Assembly (NCBI GenBank): GCA_014802325.1
Contig: JAAVCK010000017.1
Coordinates: 50,128 to 114,127 of the forward strand
DNA from: Bacteroides sp.
Lineage (GTDB): Bacteria; Bacteroidota; Bacteroidia; Bacteroidales; Muribaculaceae
DNA: 64,000 nucleotides
Reading direction: 5' to 3'
In this document: piece after piece, positions 1 through 5,015 of the stretch
Position numbering within the stretch: the first letter of the stretch is position 1
Layout: every line of letters begins with the position of its first letter
Translations under genes and position numbers: made by a program
The notes under the pieces: model-generated
Databases searched by the model: none
What the model saw: the letters and a program-made list of their open reading frames with translations, nothing else
What the model was told of the DNA's origin: nothing

Positions 1-515
1 TCCGTGCCGTAGTCGAGTTTCTTGACGTAGATATTATTGTCTTCGGCCACGAATGCCACCATGCGGCCATCGGGCGAAAATAGGGGAGAGCGTTGCACGG
101 CATGATCGTCTGACAGGGGCGTGAGCATACGGGTGCGAATCTCGTAGACATAATAAGCTGCTGTAAACGAGCGTCGGTATATCATTTTCTTACCGGTGGT
201 CAGGAGGAGTTTCGATCCGTCGGGGCTGAGCGTGAATCCCTCGATGGATTTCAGCGACGTGCCGCGGGTATGGGTGAGATCCATCACGGTCTCCACTTCC
301 TTGTCGGTCTTGAGGTCAAATCGCTTCACGGCCATATCGTCGGGCATATATGCCAGATAGGTAGTGCCATCAGGGTCGAAAGTCATTTCGGCCGGCGATG
401 CAGCGGTATTGCCCGGGTATACGTAGGGAGCCATGCCGGTGTCGACCTTCACGGCCGATACGGCAGTGGCGCTTAGAGTGGAGAGTGATAGGATAGTAGT
501 CAGTATTTTTTTCAT
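1..515 (-). CDS. Dipeptidyl peptidase IV family (S9B) protein, N-terminal part, runs off the left edge
   Basis: Manual translation from ATG at 515: MKKILTTILSLSTLSATAVSA (signal peptide) ... MIYRRSFTAAYYVYE ... QRSPLFSPDGRMVAFVAEDNNIYVKKL, typical of the DPP-IV beta-propeller. Not in the ORF track because it has no stop in the window. Confidence 0.85.
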   Translation of the reverse strand, partial: MKKILTTILSLSTLSATAVSAVKVDTGMAPYVYPGNTAASPAEMTFDPDGTTYLAYMPDDMAVKRFDLKTDKEVETVMDLTHTRGTSLKSIEGFTLSPDGSKLLLTTGKKMIYRRSFTAAYYVYEIRTRMLTPLSDDHAVQRSPLFSPDGRMVAFVAEDNNIYVKKLDYGT

Positions 516-527
516 GAGTTGATAGCG

Positions 528-571
528 GCTGAATTTAGAAGAGTGAAAGGCTGAATTTAGAAGAGTGAAAG
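528..571. repeat. 22-bp perfect tandem duplication (GCTGAATTTAGAAGAGTGAAAG x2) overlapping the stop codon of the coiled-coil gene
   Basis: Read directly: 528-549 equals 550-571. Confidence 0.95.
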
Positions 572-2014
572 CTGTGCGTCGTTGTCAGGCACTACGGTGC
601 GCGGAGGTTCGTGGTAACCGAAATCGGGGTCAAACTTGCGTGAGCCTTCGGGCACATCGAGCCAGTCAGTGCTGTCGAGATTGCCGTCGATGGCGTCACG
701 CGTCTTGCGCGGACGTCCGCGGCGCTTGCGCTGAGGCGGGGCAGCTGAGGCGGGAGCGGGATCGTCAATGAGCCTCGGGGCAGCCTCGGCTTCCTGCAGG
801 CGCTCCTTGGTGCGGTCGAGTTCGGCACGCAGTTGCTTTATCTCCGAGCGGAGCTTCATCTCGGCGTTGGCCTGATTGTAAAGATTGGTCTCTATAGTGT
901 GGGAGAGCGATGCGTTTTCATCGCGCAGACGCAGGATTTCTTCCTCAGCGGCTTGAACGTCAGGAGCCGGAGCGGGCATATTTTCAATCTGTTCGGAGAG
1001 CTGCTTCACCTTAGCGGTAAGTTCGGTGATTTTAGCGTCTTTGCGTTTTTTGATTTCCTCAAAGAGTTCGAGTTTTTCCTGGATTTCGGCAGCTATGGCC
1101 AGATCGGATTCGGCTTTGGCAAGCTGCTCCCGGGCGCGCGATGCTTCAGCCTGAAGATTGTTGATCATACTGTCGCTCATAGTGGCTTTCAGTTCAAGCT
1201 GCTCGTTGAGAGTGCGGGCTTTGTTGACCTCGGCATCGAGCTGCTTGATGCGTGAGGTGAGCGACTCGATGTGAGAGTTTAGTTCTTCGATTTTCGCGTC
1301 CTTTTCGGCCGATTCGGTCGGGTCGACAGCTTGGAGCTGACTATGCTTGGTGCTGACTTGTCCCTTCTCGGCTATCAGTTTGCTCAGATGGGAGTCAAGT
1401 TCAGTGATCCGGTCGGTAAAAGCCTGTTTCTGCTGCTCGGCGCTTGTGCGCAGCGATAGCATTTCGTTGCGGAGAGCATCAGCCTCTTCCCGGGCTTGAT
1501 GGAGGGTGTCGATGAGTTGCCGGTGTTCAGTCATGTCAGCCGGAGTGGATACCCTGACCGCTACAGTGGAAGCAATGCGCGCGCGGAGCGAATCGCTGAT
1601 ATGGTCGTAGATATATTTACGCTGCGCTTCAGAGCTGAGCGACTTGGCTACAAACTCGGGCATCGTGGAGTTAAACAGCTCAATAATCGCGTCGAATATA
1701 TCACCCGGCAGATCGTCAGACGAAGTTTCTACTGTCTCTGAAACTATTTCGGCCTTTGTCTCGGCTTCAGCCTTTGTCTCGGCTTCAGCCTTTGTCTCGG
1801 CTTCAACCTTTACCTCGGGTTCGCTCTCAGCCACGGGTCCGGCCACGGGTTCGGTCTCAGCCTTGGGCGACGGAAGGCCGCGCATCACAGGCTTGATCTC
1901 CTCCTCGGGGCGTTCTACGGCATAGGTGGGAACCGATGAGTCGTATTCGTCGAAATCTTCTTCATCGGTAGGCCCGAATCCGAGCAGCTGCTTTATTTCG
2001 TTCCAGATTGACAT
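557..2014 (-). CDS. Hypothetical long coiled-coil protein with N-terminal amphipathic helix, AT-hook-like RGRPRK and C-terminal QLSLF
   Basis: 485-aa ORF in the codirectional run; heptad-rich E/K/Q/L segment over about 250 aa; KRRGRPRK near the C-terminus; ends in QLSLF. Confidence 0.85.
   Translation of the reverse strand: MSIWNEIKQLLGFGPTDEEDFDEYDSSVPTYAVERPEEEIKPVMRGLPSPKAETEPVAGPVAESEPEVKVEAETKAEAETKAEAETKAEIVSETVETSSDDLPGDIFDAIIELFNSTMPEFVAKSLSSEAQRKYIYDHISDSLRARIASTVAVRVSTPADMTEHRQLIDTLHQAREEADALRNEMLSLRTSAEQQKQAFTDRITELDSHLSKLIAEKGQVSTKHSQLQAVDPTESAEKDAKIEELNSHIESLTSRIKQLDAEVNKARTLNEQLELKATMSDSMINNLQAEASRAREQLAKAESDLAIAAEIQEKLELFEEIKKRKDAKITELTAKVKQLSEQIENMPAPAPDVQAAEEEILRLRDENASLSHTIETNLYNQANAEMKLRSEIKQLRAELDRTKERLQEAEAAPRLIDDPAPASAAPPQRKRRGRPRKTRDAIDGNLDSTDWLDVPEGSRKFDPDFGYHEPPRTVVPDNDAQLSLF
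1752..1805 (-). repeat. In-frame 18-bp tandem repeat x3 encoding (EAETKA)3
   Basis: GCCTTTGTCTCGGCTTCA repeated three times on the + strand. Confidence 0.95.
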
Positions 2015-2042: not shown

Positions 2043-5015
2043 TTATAAAATATCAGGTTTCACCACCACACCCATTCCCTTTGTGCCGTCGATGCCGATG
2101 GCGAAAGGCTGCGGGATGGTGACTACTCTTACATGTTCGGTCTCGGCCACGGCGGGAAGACTGTCGAGGAAGTCCACGTCATATATTCCCTTGCCGGCGG
2201 CGGTGTCGACCGTAAAGTAGCCCACCCCCATAGATGTGAGGTTCTGGAAGAAGTGTGTACCCTGGCTCGGCTCGATTCGGTAGTTGGGCAGCGACGACTC
2301 CACGATCAGACGGGCACATGAAATAGCCGGCCATTTCACGGGAATACCCAGCGCGGTGTCAGACGAGCCCCACCTTCCGGGCCCAATCAGGATATAGTTT
2401 TCTCCCTGAGCTGTAAAGTTACGATTTATTTTTTCAATTTCGCGTGCTATGAGCGAATTATTTGCCGAAGAAAAGCATTCGGGACGCACATAAACGACAG
2501 AACGGACATTTTCAAACGTTCCGTGGCCTAAAGCGGTGGTGGATTTCAGCAGCAGTCGGTCGTCGGGCGTTTCCATCAGATGCGGGTCGACGGAGTCTTT
2601 CCGCTCCACGATGGGCCGTATCTGCAACCAGTAGAGTCGGCCTTTTCCGCGCTCGTTTTCGTCGATCATGCCGGCAAATTCTATTTCCACCGGTCGCGAC
2701 ATGGCTTTCTGCCCTGTGGTGAGCATGAAGTCGAGAGCATCGGCCAGCGGTAGCACTTTATGGCGGAGGATGTTATTGAAGGTCACCACGCGTCGGCCTT
2801 CGCCGCTCTCGTAGTCACGCAACACATTGTCGCGGAAATCGTAGGTCGACACCATGTAGCGCAGCGCGCCCTTCATGGCCACATCCTGCACTTTGAGGCG
2901 GGCGAGATTGAAGCTGTCGTCGATCTTGAAATCTTCGGGCACATTTACGGTGTCGAGTGCATAGAGGCGAGTCTGAGTGTCGCGAAGGGCAAGCTGTATT
3001 TCCGAAGTCTGAAGCACATTGTCGGGATGGCGGGGTGAGAACCTAAGTCCTACTCCTCCGTCGACAATGTATTTACCAAGCCCCACGGCTATCTCCACCA
3101 CTCCGTCTTCGGGTCGCTCATCGTTGATGGGATAGTAGTTGAGCGAACGGCCTACACCCGAAAACGACGGGAAGTAATAACCGTCGACATCCTTACCCAC
3201 TACCTCCTGAATTATGACGGCCATCTTCTCCTGATCAATGACATTGGAAGTGGCGGTCATATATGCTTTCGAGTCAGCATAGTATACCGAGGCATAGACG
3301 CTCTTGATAGCATCGGTGACCACTCCGAGCATCTGAGCCGGGTCGGCCAGCTTGGGCACCATGTAGGTGGAGTATATGCCGGCAAACGGCTGATAATGCG
3401 AGTCTTCGAGGAGCGACGACGATCGTATGGCCAGCGGACGGTCCACCACCTCAAAGAGGGCAAGCAGATCTTCCTTGATGGTGACAGGGAGTTTGGCTTT
3501 CAGAAAGTGTTCGAGTATTACGGAGTCGTCGGCATCAGAGAGCGCTATCGGGTAGAGATTGTTGGCCGACATAAATTCGTCGAAAATGTCGGTGCACAGT
3601 ACTACCGTGCGCGGAATGGTGATGGTGAGTCCGTCGAAATCATCGCATACGGGATTCTTCTTGATTATGGAGTCGATAAACGCCAGACCGCGCCCCTTGC
3701 CTCCGAGTGAGCCATCACCTATACGGGCGAAGTTGGAGTAATGATCGAAACGGTCTTTGCGGAACACAGCTACTACACCGCGGTTTTTCATCTTGCGGTA
3801 TTTCACTATGAGGTCAAAGAAAAACTTGCGTGCCTCGGGAGCATCTTCAAGTGACTTGAAGCGGTGGCGCTTGATGAGTTCGGCTATCGGAAACATGGCG
3901 CGGCTGTAGAGCCACCGCGATATGTCGTTGAACGACGCATGCCAGTAGAGCGATTCGGCCGGTATGTCGAATATATGATCCTGAAGATCTTTAAGCGATT
4001 TCAGGCGTATGATTTCCTCTCCGGTCTCGGGATTACGAATCACAAAGTCGCCGAAGCCGAAGTTGTCGGTGATGGCGCTTCCGAGGTCTACGGGAAATTT
4101 CTTGGAATTTTTGTCGATAAACGTGCATCCGAGTTCGGCCACGTCATCGGCATTGGATTTCTCCGACGACTCGATGATGATGGGCAGAAACGGGTCGCGT
4201 CCGCGCAGTTCACGGGCAAGTTTTACACCCGCCTTCGGGTCTTTGCGGCCATCGTGGTTAAACGATACGTCGGTGATCACACCCAGTATATGCTCATGAT
4301 AGCGGTCATAGAGTCGCATGGCTTCCTCATAGTCGCGAGCCAGCATCACTTTAGGGCGTCCGCGCATGCGCAGCATCTGCTCGTGCTCGTTGAGCGCTTC
4401 GGTCGAAAATTCGCGCGACTGCTCAAGCAGAAACTTATATACCTGAGGGAGGACTGAGGAGTAGAATCTCACCGAATCTTCTACCAGAAGTATCATCTGC
4501 ACGCCTACATCGTTGATGTCGTTGTCGGCGTTCATCTTGTCTTCGAGCAGCTTTATTATTGCCAGAAGCAGACCTACGTTGCCCAGCCAGCTGAAAACAT
4601 AGTCGATACCGGTGAAATCTTCGGCCGAAAGGCGACGCGACACTTCCTTGGAGAACGGAGTGAGCACCACTATAGGCAGGTCGGGATAAAGTGCCTTGAT
4701 GGTCCGGGCGCCGGTAAAAGTCTCGCTTATGTCGATGCCCGGCATTGTTATCACGAGGTCAAACTTGGTGGCGGCGAGTTTTTCGAGAGCTTCGGCAGTA
4801 TCAGTGACGCGAGTGACTCGCGGCGGCGACGAGAGATTGAGCGACACGTATTCAAAATACAGCTGCTCCTCCACGCGCCCGTCTTCCTCCATCATGAAGG
4901 CGTCGTATGGCGAGGCTATGAGCAGCACATTGAATATGCGCCGCTTCATGAGATTCTGAAATGCCGTGTCCTTAAGATAAAGACGGCTAAGCTCGTCTAC
5001 GCCGTGAGATTTCAT
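2043..5015 (-). CDS. PEP/pyruvate-binding (PPDK_N ATP-grasp) domain protein with N-terminal receiver domains, usually annotated PEP synthase-like
   Basis: 990 aa; GSLGGKGRGL, LAIRSSSLLEDSHYQPFAGIYST, MAVIIQEVVG, EIAVGLG and PVEIEFA...LQIRP are ATP-grasp motifs of the PEP synthase/PPDK N-domain; receiver-like LLVED...GVITD...IIESS...FIDK. Confidence 0.85.
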   Translation of the reverse strand: MKSHGVDELSRLYLKDTAFQNLMKRRIFNVLLIASPYDAFMMEEDGRVEEQLYFEYVSLNLSSPPRVTRVTDTAEALEKLAATKFDLVITMPGIDISETFTGARTIKALYPDLPIVVLTPFSKEVSRRLSAEDFTGIDYVFSWLGNVGLLLAIIKLLEDKMNADNDINDVGVQMILLVEDSVRFYSSVLPQVYKFLLEQSREFSTEALNEHEQMLRMRGRPKVMLARDYEEAMRLYDRYHEHILGVITDVSFNHDGRKDPKAGVKLARELRGRDPFLPIIIESSEKSNADDVAELGCTFIDKNSKKFPVDLGSAITDNFGFGDFVIRNPETGEEIIRLKSLKDLQDHIFDIPAESLYWHASFNDISRWLYSRAMFPIAELIKRHRFKSLEDAPEARKFFFDLIVKYRKMKNRGVVAVFRKDRFDHYSNFARIGDGSLGGKGRGLAFIDSIIKKNPVCDDFDGLTITIPRTVVLCTDIFDEFMSANNLYPIALSDADDSVILEHFLKAKLPVTIKEDLLALFEVVDRPLAIRSSSLLEDSHYQPFAGIYSTYMVPKLADPAQMLGVVTDAIKSVYASVYYADSKAYMTATSNVIDQEKMAVIIQEVVGKDVDGYYFPSFSGVGRSLNYYPINDERPEDGVVEIAVGLGKYIVDGGVGLRFSPRHPDNVLQTSEIQLALRDTQTRLYALDTVNVPEDFKIDDSFNLARLKVQDVAMKGALRYMVSTYDFRDNVLRDYESGEGRRVVTFNNILRHKVLPLADALDFMLTTGQKAMSRPVEIEFAGMIDENERGKGRLYWLQIRPIVERKDSVDPHLMETPDDRLLLKSTTALGHGTFENVRSVVYVRPECFSSANNSLIAREIEKINRNFTAQGENYILIGPGRWGSSDTALGIPVKWPAISCARLIVESSLPNYRIEPSQGTHFFQNLTSMGVGYFTVDTAAGKGIYDVDFLDSLPAVAETEHVRVVTIPQPFAIGIDGTKGMGVVVKPDIL

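Follow-up and report, generated by a model that had tools for sequence, protein, structure and literature searches.

What could a protein with no recognisable catalytic domain do in the cell when it begins with an amphipathic helix, continues as a long coiled coil and ends in a peptide of the type that binds the beta sliding clamp, DnaN? This question is raised by a minus-strand open reading frame (ORF) at positions 557..2014 of a stretch of 64,000 nucleotides (nt), here called the window, from a Bacteroides sp. of the Muribaculaceae (assembly GCA_014802325.1, contig JAAVCK010000017.1, positions 50,128 to 114,127). According to the ORF list of the window and its translation it encodes 485 amino acids (aa) followed by a stop codon. 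The preliminary description of this DNA had taken the product for a candidate tether between membrane, nucleoid and replisome, and the ORF and all the motifs which it listed are present in the translated sequence. Our answer is tentative, and we give it a little less than an even chance: judging from its sequence, its structural model and the analogy with known systems, the protein would be a coiled-coil adaptor, peripheral to the membrane, which binds DnaN where it sits on DNA and tethers clamp-marked new DNA to the membrane. The gene and its parts, with the observation that defines each of them, are the following.

557..2014, minus strand: whole ORF, 485 aa and stop, member of an unnamed Bacteroidales family (translation; 191 word-index matches; 429 cluster representatives at E<=1e-3)
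1976..2014, minus strand: N-terminal amphipathic helix ending in G-F, residues 1-13 (AlphaFold2 helix at 3-10; hydrophobic moment; G12 invariant)
1922..1975, minus strand: acidic run and YDxxxPTYA motif, residues 14-31 (positions +3 to +12 after G mostly D/E across the family)
1721..1921, minus strand: disordered acidic linker of variable length, residues 32-98 (predicted local distance difference test, pLDDT, <50; alignment occupancy 0.46; AETKAE-coding repeat inside)
1550..1720, minus strand: small four-helix domain (LPxDLFDAVIxLFNxxQPEFV...AQRxYL), residues 99-155 (pLDDT ~90; conservation)
788..1549, minus strand: coiled coil of three long helices, residues 156-409 (AlphaFold2; heptad period; conserved segments at ~190-207 and 367-395)
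704..739, minus strand: AT-hook-type basic cluster PPQRKRRGRPRK, residues 426-437 (read from the sequence; RGRP core at nt 710-721)
659..691, minus strand: IDxxLDxTDWL short linear motif, residues 442-452 (D443 91% and W451 95% conserved)
599..625, minus strand: DFGYHEPPR short linear motif, residues 464-472 (F465, G466 and Y467 at least 98%, P470 100%, in a 126-member alignment)
560..574, minus strand: QLSLF, C-terminal pentapeptide of the beta-clamp-binding type, residues 481-485 (Q and L4 invariant; unique in the genome)

The last five residues are exactly QLSLF, as the preliminary description had read them, with codons at 560-574 and the stop codon (TAA) at 557-559. A terminal Q[LM]x[LM][FWL] is found in one of the 3855 ORFs of at least 80 aa in this genome, namely this one, and the pentapeptide Q[LM][SDTNG]L[FW] occurs only twice at any place in the 3855 ORFs. 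Conservation was counted in an alignment of 126 diverse full-length members of the family, to which a separate wider alignment adds the deepest branches. The form Q-[L/M]-x-L-[F/W] is present in 125 of the 126, the remaining member having P at position 2. Positions 1 (Q) and 4 (L) are invariant, position 2 is L in 67, M in 58 and P in one, S, T, L and V occur at position 3, and at position 5 there is F in 73 members and W in 53. Q481 and L484 constitute two of only four invariant columns, and two of only six once the deepest branches are added. The terminal QLxLF which homologues had been expected to share is accordingly kept across the 126 members in the form Q-phi-x-L-[F/W]. Since it is the only ORF end of its kind in the genome and is kept in all 126 members, the terminal motif is more than chance.

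A recent peptide-binding study with an alanine scan (bioRxiv 10.64898/2026.05.27.728225) has given the rule for the clamp-binding motif as Q-phi-x-L-F: binding depends on positions 1, 4 and 5, calls for an aliphatic residue at position 2 and sets no requirement at position 3. Read from the alignment, the constraint profile of the family matches this published rule position by position, W at position 5 apart. In 114 members the protein stops right after the pentapeptide, and the other 12 have one to three more residues; the motif can thus do without a free carboxylate at its end, as in internal clamp motifs and unlike in mimics of the SSB tail. An SSB-tail mimic was rejected for the reason that Q is invariant and that these 12 members continue beyond the aromatic residue. 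The same genome encodes a canonical DnaN, together with known clamp partners that carry canonical motifs (MutS with QLSFF and a UmuC-like polymerase with QPDLF). Moreover, in five other genomes QMSLW followed by a stop codon occurs once per genome, in this family alone.

Two other proteins of the same genome have ends that resemble near-terminal clamp-binding motifs. One is a topoisomerase IV/gyrase A-type protein ending in ...GQQRLFE (contig C4:30193-32901) and the other a PcfK-like protein of a conjugative element ending in ...QPSLFDF (contig C24:30321-30773). The profile DNA_pol3_alpha (PF07733) had no match in this 91%-complete assembly, so that dnaE probably lies in the unassembled part.

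At the opposite end the protein starts with MSIWNEIKQLLGFG, and the acidic run DEEDFDEYD follows at residues 17-25. The N-terminal pattern of the family is M-S-h-h-x-x-h-K-[RK]-A-[FL]-G-[FL] and then about ten D/E residues, with Met1 placed exactly 11 residues ahead of the invariant G in 111 of the 126 members. The mean hydrophobic moment of the helix is 0.58, compared with 0.34 for shuffled sequences, and the net charge is +2 in 77 members. An amphipathic, usually cationic face such as this is typical of membrane-targeting sequences and makes the N-terminus a putative anchor. The helix singled out in the preliminary description is thus conserved among homologues, with a fixed position, a common pattern and an invariant G12. 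In SepF and Noc, acidic residues also follow the N-terminal helix. The membrane anchor of Noc is a proven 10-residue amphipathic helix at the N-terminus (bioRxiv 10.1101/2021.02.11.430593). The idea of a secreted protein was rejected, as there is no signal-peptide-like hydrophobic core and the acidic run comes after residue 13.

The majority residue makes up a fraction of 0.79 in the last five residues, of 0.64 in the first 13 and of only 0.11-0.15 in the linkers, which agrees with the expectation that the N-terminal helix and the terminal pentapeptide would be conserved together while the linkers vary. Between the two ends, AlphaFold2, run with the 126-sequence alignment, predicts a short helix at residues 3-10, a disordered acidic segment that reaches residue 98, a compact domain of helices in residues 99-155 (pLDDT ~90) and long helices at 158-227, 236-345 and 351-409 (pLDDT mostly >90). 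The tail from 410 to 485, which includes the terminal motif, is modelled with low confidence and is mostly non-helical. In residues 156-409 hydrophobic residues recur with a period of 3.51 residues, with a power of 3.15 compared with 1.66 for the 95th percentile of shuffles. The long helices and this period above the shuffles together show that the coiled coil previously described is genuine. The product of ORF 557..2014 would be a cytoplasmic coiled-coil adaptor with no catalytic domain, probably dimeric.

The disordered linker contains an 18-bp unit repeated 4.2 times at window positions 1748-1822, which codes for its AETKAE repeats. One relative that is 97% identical (P0002) has 479 aa, six fewer than the window protein, and this would fit a difference of one 18-bp unit.

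The third element of the proposed tether is the basic stretch PPQRKRRGRPRK of the tail. Its presence was correctly reported in the preliminary description but not its position, given there as nt 701-730; it occupies 704-739, with the RGRP core at 710-721. It includes KRRGRPRK at residues 430-437, in which R/K stand before and after the G-R-P core, and its surroundings are disordered (pLDDT 35-47). RGR is invariant in 20 close relatives. Family-wide, GRP is present in 35 of the 126 members, comprising a Muribaculaceae-like clade and scattered others, and a basic cluster with at least five K/R in eight residues stands at the same place in 106 of them, ending at a median of 17 residues before the conserved W. 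The co-conservation of RGRP that had been anticipated seems to apply to the close relatives and not to the family as a whole, in which a plain K/R cluster stands at that place elsewhere.

Other parts of the protein are also strongly conserved. In the helical domain F114, N115, P119, F121 and Q131 are at least 90% conserved; two of them, N115 and P119, do not vary in the deep branches either. The coiled coil includes a highly conserved segment at about residues 190-207, with the family consensus LSAERQKRALxDRxxDLE, and a strongly conserved one at 367-395, ENASLxxTIETNLYNQAxSE. In the tail the [D/N]-W-[L/F/M] motif is conserved, within IDxxLDxTDW[LF], and its W is kept in the deep branches. The suggestion that the middle of the protein diverges is correct for the linkers and for much of the coiled coil, but fails for the 57-aa helical domain and for the LSAERQKRAL and TIETNLYNQA segments. 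As the helical domain and the coiled-coil segments are so strongly conserved, they would be further interaction surfaces.

The family to which the protein belongs was collected with a word-indexed search, which gave 191 relatives, and with an exhaustive search, which gave 429 cluster representatives at E<=1e-3 and 232 at E<=1e-10, the clusters being defined at 50% identity. All the named relatives are annotated as "hypothetical protein" and one has been automatically mislabelled "Smc". Scans of the window protein and six distant homologues against Pfam and NCBIfam returned only sub-threshold coiled-coil families. In profile searches neither the helical domain nor the tail matched a PDB sequence at E<0.8, and Foldseek found no counterpart in PDB at E<=0.001, either for the complete model or for the helical domain alone. 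In the ESM Atlas only coiled-coil look-alikes, crescentin-like rods, were found. The family is thus conserved, unnamed and without detectable homology to characterised proteins. Moreover, full-text literature searches returned no paper describing it and no protein that joins a clamp-binding motif with a membrane-targeting sequence.

Members were found in 12 of the 201 Bacteroidales genomes sampled, which corresponds to about seven of the 148 GTDB families. They occur in Muribaculaceae (including Duncaniella), Barnesiellaceae (Barnesiella), Coprobacter and relatives, and the named carriers include B. propionica (WP_147549126.1) and Coprobacter tertius (WP_255025499.1). When 400 genomes of the phylum were searched, the full-length profile matched, outside Bacteroidales, just the coiled-coil regions of SMC-sized proteins, and the tail profile gave no credible match.

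Some public records of metagenome-assembled genomes with clear Muribaculaceae-type copies are titled "uncultured Staphylococcus sp.", "Lachnoclostridium sp." or "Clostridium sp.", and these labels look wrong. In addition, one metagenome bin (contigs CALATP010000003 and CALATP010000026) holds two different members of the family, either as a paralogue pair or because the bin is mixed.

Judged by its motifs, the protein appears to resemble two known kinds at once, namely a client of the clamp motif and a membrane tether with an amphipathic helix, and it belongs to none of SepF, Noc/ParB, YabA, EzrA or CrfC. With the clamp-motif partners (Pol II/IV/V, PolC, MutS, Hda and CrfC) it shares a consensus pentapeptide in a flexible tail with the same positional constraint. 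Unlike them it has no polymerase, repair, AAA+ or dynamin domain, and in its family the motif is joined to a coiled coil and a putative membrane anchor and has W at position 5 in about half of the cases. Comparable is CrfC of Escherichia coli, an oligomer that binds the clamp without being a polymerase and for which a role in holding nascent sister DNA and aiding nucleoid partition has been proposed (PMC6374313). It is, however, a dynamin-like GTPase from another taxon, whereas the window protein has neither a GTPase domain nor sequence similarity to it.

The likeness to Noc (Bacillus), RocS (Streptococcus) and RicO (Staphylococcus) lies in the combination of an amphipathic membrane helix with a DNA-directed module, and in Noc the helix is also at the extreme N-terminus. 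These proteins bind specific DNA sites by folded ParB/HTH-type (helix-turn-helix) domains, and in RocS and RicO the helix is C-terminal. In the window protein a basic cluster and a clamp motif stand instead together in a disordered tail, and targeting would accordingly follow replication and not sequence. No ParB-type CTPase or HTH domain was matched in Pfam or NCBIfam, and the AlphaFold2 model contains helices and coiled coil only. The analogy with Noc, RacA and MatP drawn in the preliminary description does not extend to their domains, none of which is present according to Pfam.

The resemblance to SepF (PF04472) which had been pointed out is confined to the N-terminal peptide, as the C-terminal SepF/DUF552 FtsZ-binding domain is missing (no match at E<=1 in Pfam) and the protein is not a member of that family. 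The N-terminus of SepF presumably shares with ours a short amphipathic helix, an F/G-rich turn and acidic residues. YabA (PF06156) is likewise a coiled-coil oligomer with a flexible linker and a clamp-directed C-terminal end, but it has about 120 aa, a zinc-binding C-terminal domain, no membrane helix and no sequence match to the window protein. AT-hook proteins of the HMGA type (R-G-R-P) likewise have an RGRP core between K/R residues in a disordered stretch; unlike in these, the hook of the family is single and conserved in part, with plain K/R clusters elsewhere. EzrA (PF06160) gave E=0.68 and 8.6 bits against a cut-off of 39.6, and no transmembrane segment is present.

On these grounds the following mechanism can be proposed. 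The N-terminal amphipathic helix would anchor the protein at the inner face of the membrane, in the manner of SepF and Noc, and the terminal Q-phi-x-L-[F/W] peptide would lodge in the hydrophobic cleft of DnaN, the sliding clamp. In this way the tail could capture clamps remaining on newly replicated DNA, with the basic cluster steadying it on the DNA beside the clamp. The helix would keep the clamp-DNA assembly at the membrane and thereby attach DNA that is being replicated, or has just been, to the envelope, and this tethering may serve chromosome organisation, segregation or coordination with division. The separate elements of such a mechanism have precedents, since clamps build up on DNA behind forks (PMC4284645), CrfC, a clamp-binding oligomer, acts in nucleoid partition (PMC6374313), and Noc, RocS and RicO are DNA-to-membrane tethers. 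We infer all three binding activities (membrane, DNA and DnaN) and the cellular role from sequence, conservation and predicted architecture. The more specific version, namely a coiled-coil dimer in which clamp capture is backed by a DNA-binding cluster and anchoring depends on replication and not on sequence, is possible but rather doubtful. The same degree of doubt attaches to the suggestion that this would be a dedicated replisome-to-membrane tether evolved in one clade of Bacteroidales from the gut (Muribaculaceae, Barnesiellaceae, Coprobacter and relatives).

If the proposal is true, the protein might help to separate sister chromosomes or to prevent the cell from dividing over DNA that is still being replicated. 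The position of the replisome and of new DNA with respect to the envelope is an old question, and the replicon model of 1963 reportedly already included membrane attachment. To our knowledge the described DNA-membrane tethers (Noc, RocS, RicO and RacA) all read DNA sequence; a protein which reads the clamp would couple membrane attachment to replication itself. We are also aware of almost no exploration of chromosome biology in Bacteroidales, especially in the abundant and little-studied Muribaculaceae. The family offers a testable entry point, with three short peptides that have predicted partners and with cultured hosts in Barnesiella propionica, Coprobacter tertius and Muribaculaceae isolates. 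Moreover it would add a natural variant of the clamp motif ending in tryptophan, which is relevant to the prediction of clamp interactomes from motifs.

Several observations weigh against the tether proposed here. No documented clamp motif with W at position 5, the residue of 53 of the 126 members, was found in the literature searched, and in genomes whose family member ends in QM[S/K]LW the UmuC-like polymerases have QMNLF, QTNLF, QTRLF or QLGLY, that is, F or Y. No co-variation of the W variant with other clamp partners was seen, since the UmuC-like proteins retain F or Y. The N-terminal helix of the window protein itself has a net charge of 0 and is less cationic than the family norm. The putative true AT-hook with RGRP is clade-specific, the plain K/R cluster being more general, and the deepest branches (Barnesiella/Coprobacter-type) have neither GRP nor a basic cluster; in this branch a K/E-rich helix stands between the W motif and a terminal QMSLW, and the DFGYxEP motif is missing. 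The helical domain, LSAERQKRAL and TDWL/DFGY are three further conserved surfaces that the tether model does not account for. The presence of the family in about seven of 148 Bacteroidales families argues for an accessory rather than a core role. Finally, the neighbours of the gene are a dikinase-like regulator, a peptidase and MiaA, and not replication or division genes.

The evidence from the clamp motif would serve equally well for a soluble clamp-binding regulator with the logic of YabA or Hda, in which the N-terminal helix and the acidic run would bind a protein (DnaA, FtsZ/FtsA or another) or be autoinhibitory, and would not be an anchor. Such a protein would control initiation, clamp recycling or the access of other partners to the clamp. 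The overall lack of charge of the N-terminal helix in the window protein speaks for this explanation, as does the long acidic run right after it, which would be repelled by anionic lipids. Neither Hda nor YabA is known to have been described in Bacteroidota, which can be counted in its favour. There is also a model for it in YabA, a coiled-coil oligomer binding both DnaN and DnaA (PMC4705661). Against this, the spacing of the helix, its place from Met1 and its cationic face are those usual in membrane-targeting sequences at the N-terminus, and Pfam and NCBIfam gave no match to a YabA or Hda domain. We regard a soluble regulator, and the control attributed to it, as unlikely.

The protein might also be a scaffold of the divisome, of the cytoskeleton or of segregation, whose tail motifs bind a partner other than DnaN (FtsZ/FtsA, ParB, SMC or the dikinase-like neighbour) and whose likeness to clamp ligands is convergent. 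The same W at position 5, undocumented for clamp motifs in the literature searched, fits this suggestion, and the several extra conserved surfaces suggest multiple partners. The crescentin-like rods among the ESM Atlas neighbours point the same way, reflecting coiled-coil features only. However, Q1 and L4 are fixed, position 2 is aliphatic, position 3 free and position 5 aromatic, which is exactly the pattern of the clamp motif, and no divisome domain was found, EzrA (E=0.68) and DivIC (E=0.044) both being far below the cut-offs.

The remaining support for a scaffold comes from the genes that flank the ORF in the window.

2043..5015, minus strand: receiver + PPDK_N dikinase-like protein, 990 aa, upstream neighbour (domain scan; gap of 28 nt)
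3..515, minus strand: N-terminus of a DPP-IV-type S9 peptidase, downstream neighbour running past the window edge (locus comparison)

At every family locus examined the gene order is receiver/PPDK_N (~990 aa), family gene, DPP-IV-type peptidase, a protein of ~440 aa and MiaA, and the gap between the receiver/PPDK_N gene and the family gene, 28 nt in the window, is 12-100 nt across these loci. A scan of the coding strand, made without a Bacteroidales promoter model, found no terminator-like site between the genes. This tight synteny would favour the dikinase-like protein as a partner, but the receiver/PPDK_N gene, present in 182 of the 201 Bacteroidales genomes with ~45-80% identity, is independent of the family: in 20 genomes that do not carry the family, the gene downstream of it is an unrelated one. 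A strict functional module of the two genes was rejected on the same evidence, and a scaffold without DnaN as partner seems to us improbable. Since the dikinase-like gene has a far wider distribution and stands beside other genes in genomes that lack the family, the family gene looks like an insertion into an older string of genes. The dnaN gene (contig C17:128196-129326) lies on the same contig at a distance of 76 kb.

A generic coiled-coil or structural protein with terminal motifs due to chance would explain why there is no domain match and only coiled-coil noise, but it is very improbable, as no part is better conserved than the termini (0.79 and 0.64, while the linkers have 0.11-0.15), and this is true of more than 400 clusters.

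Two minor observations concern the flanks of the gene. The receiver/PPDK_N protein, whose PPDK_N domain is of the ATP-grasp type, is near-universal in the sampled Bacteroidales (182/201) in its own right. On the other side, window positions 527-571 contain a perfect 22-bp tandem duplication (2.0 copies) over the last four codons and the stop; its second copy is just downstream of the stop codon and leaves the protein unchanged. Located in the 41-nt gap before the DPP-IV gene, this duplication may be a scar of replication slippage.

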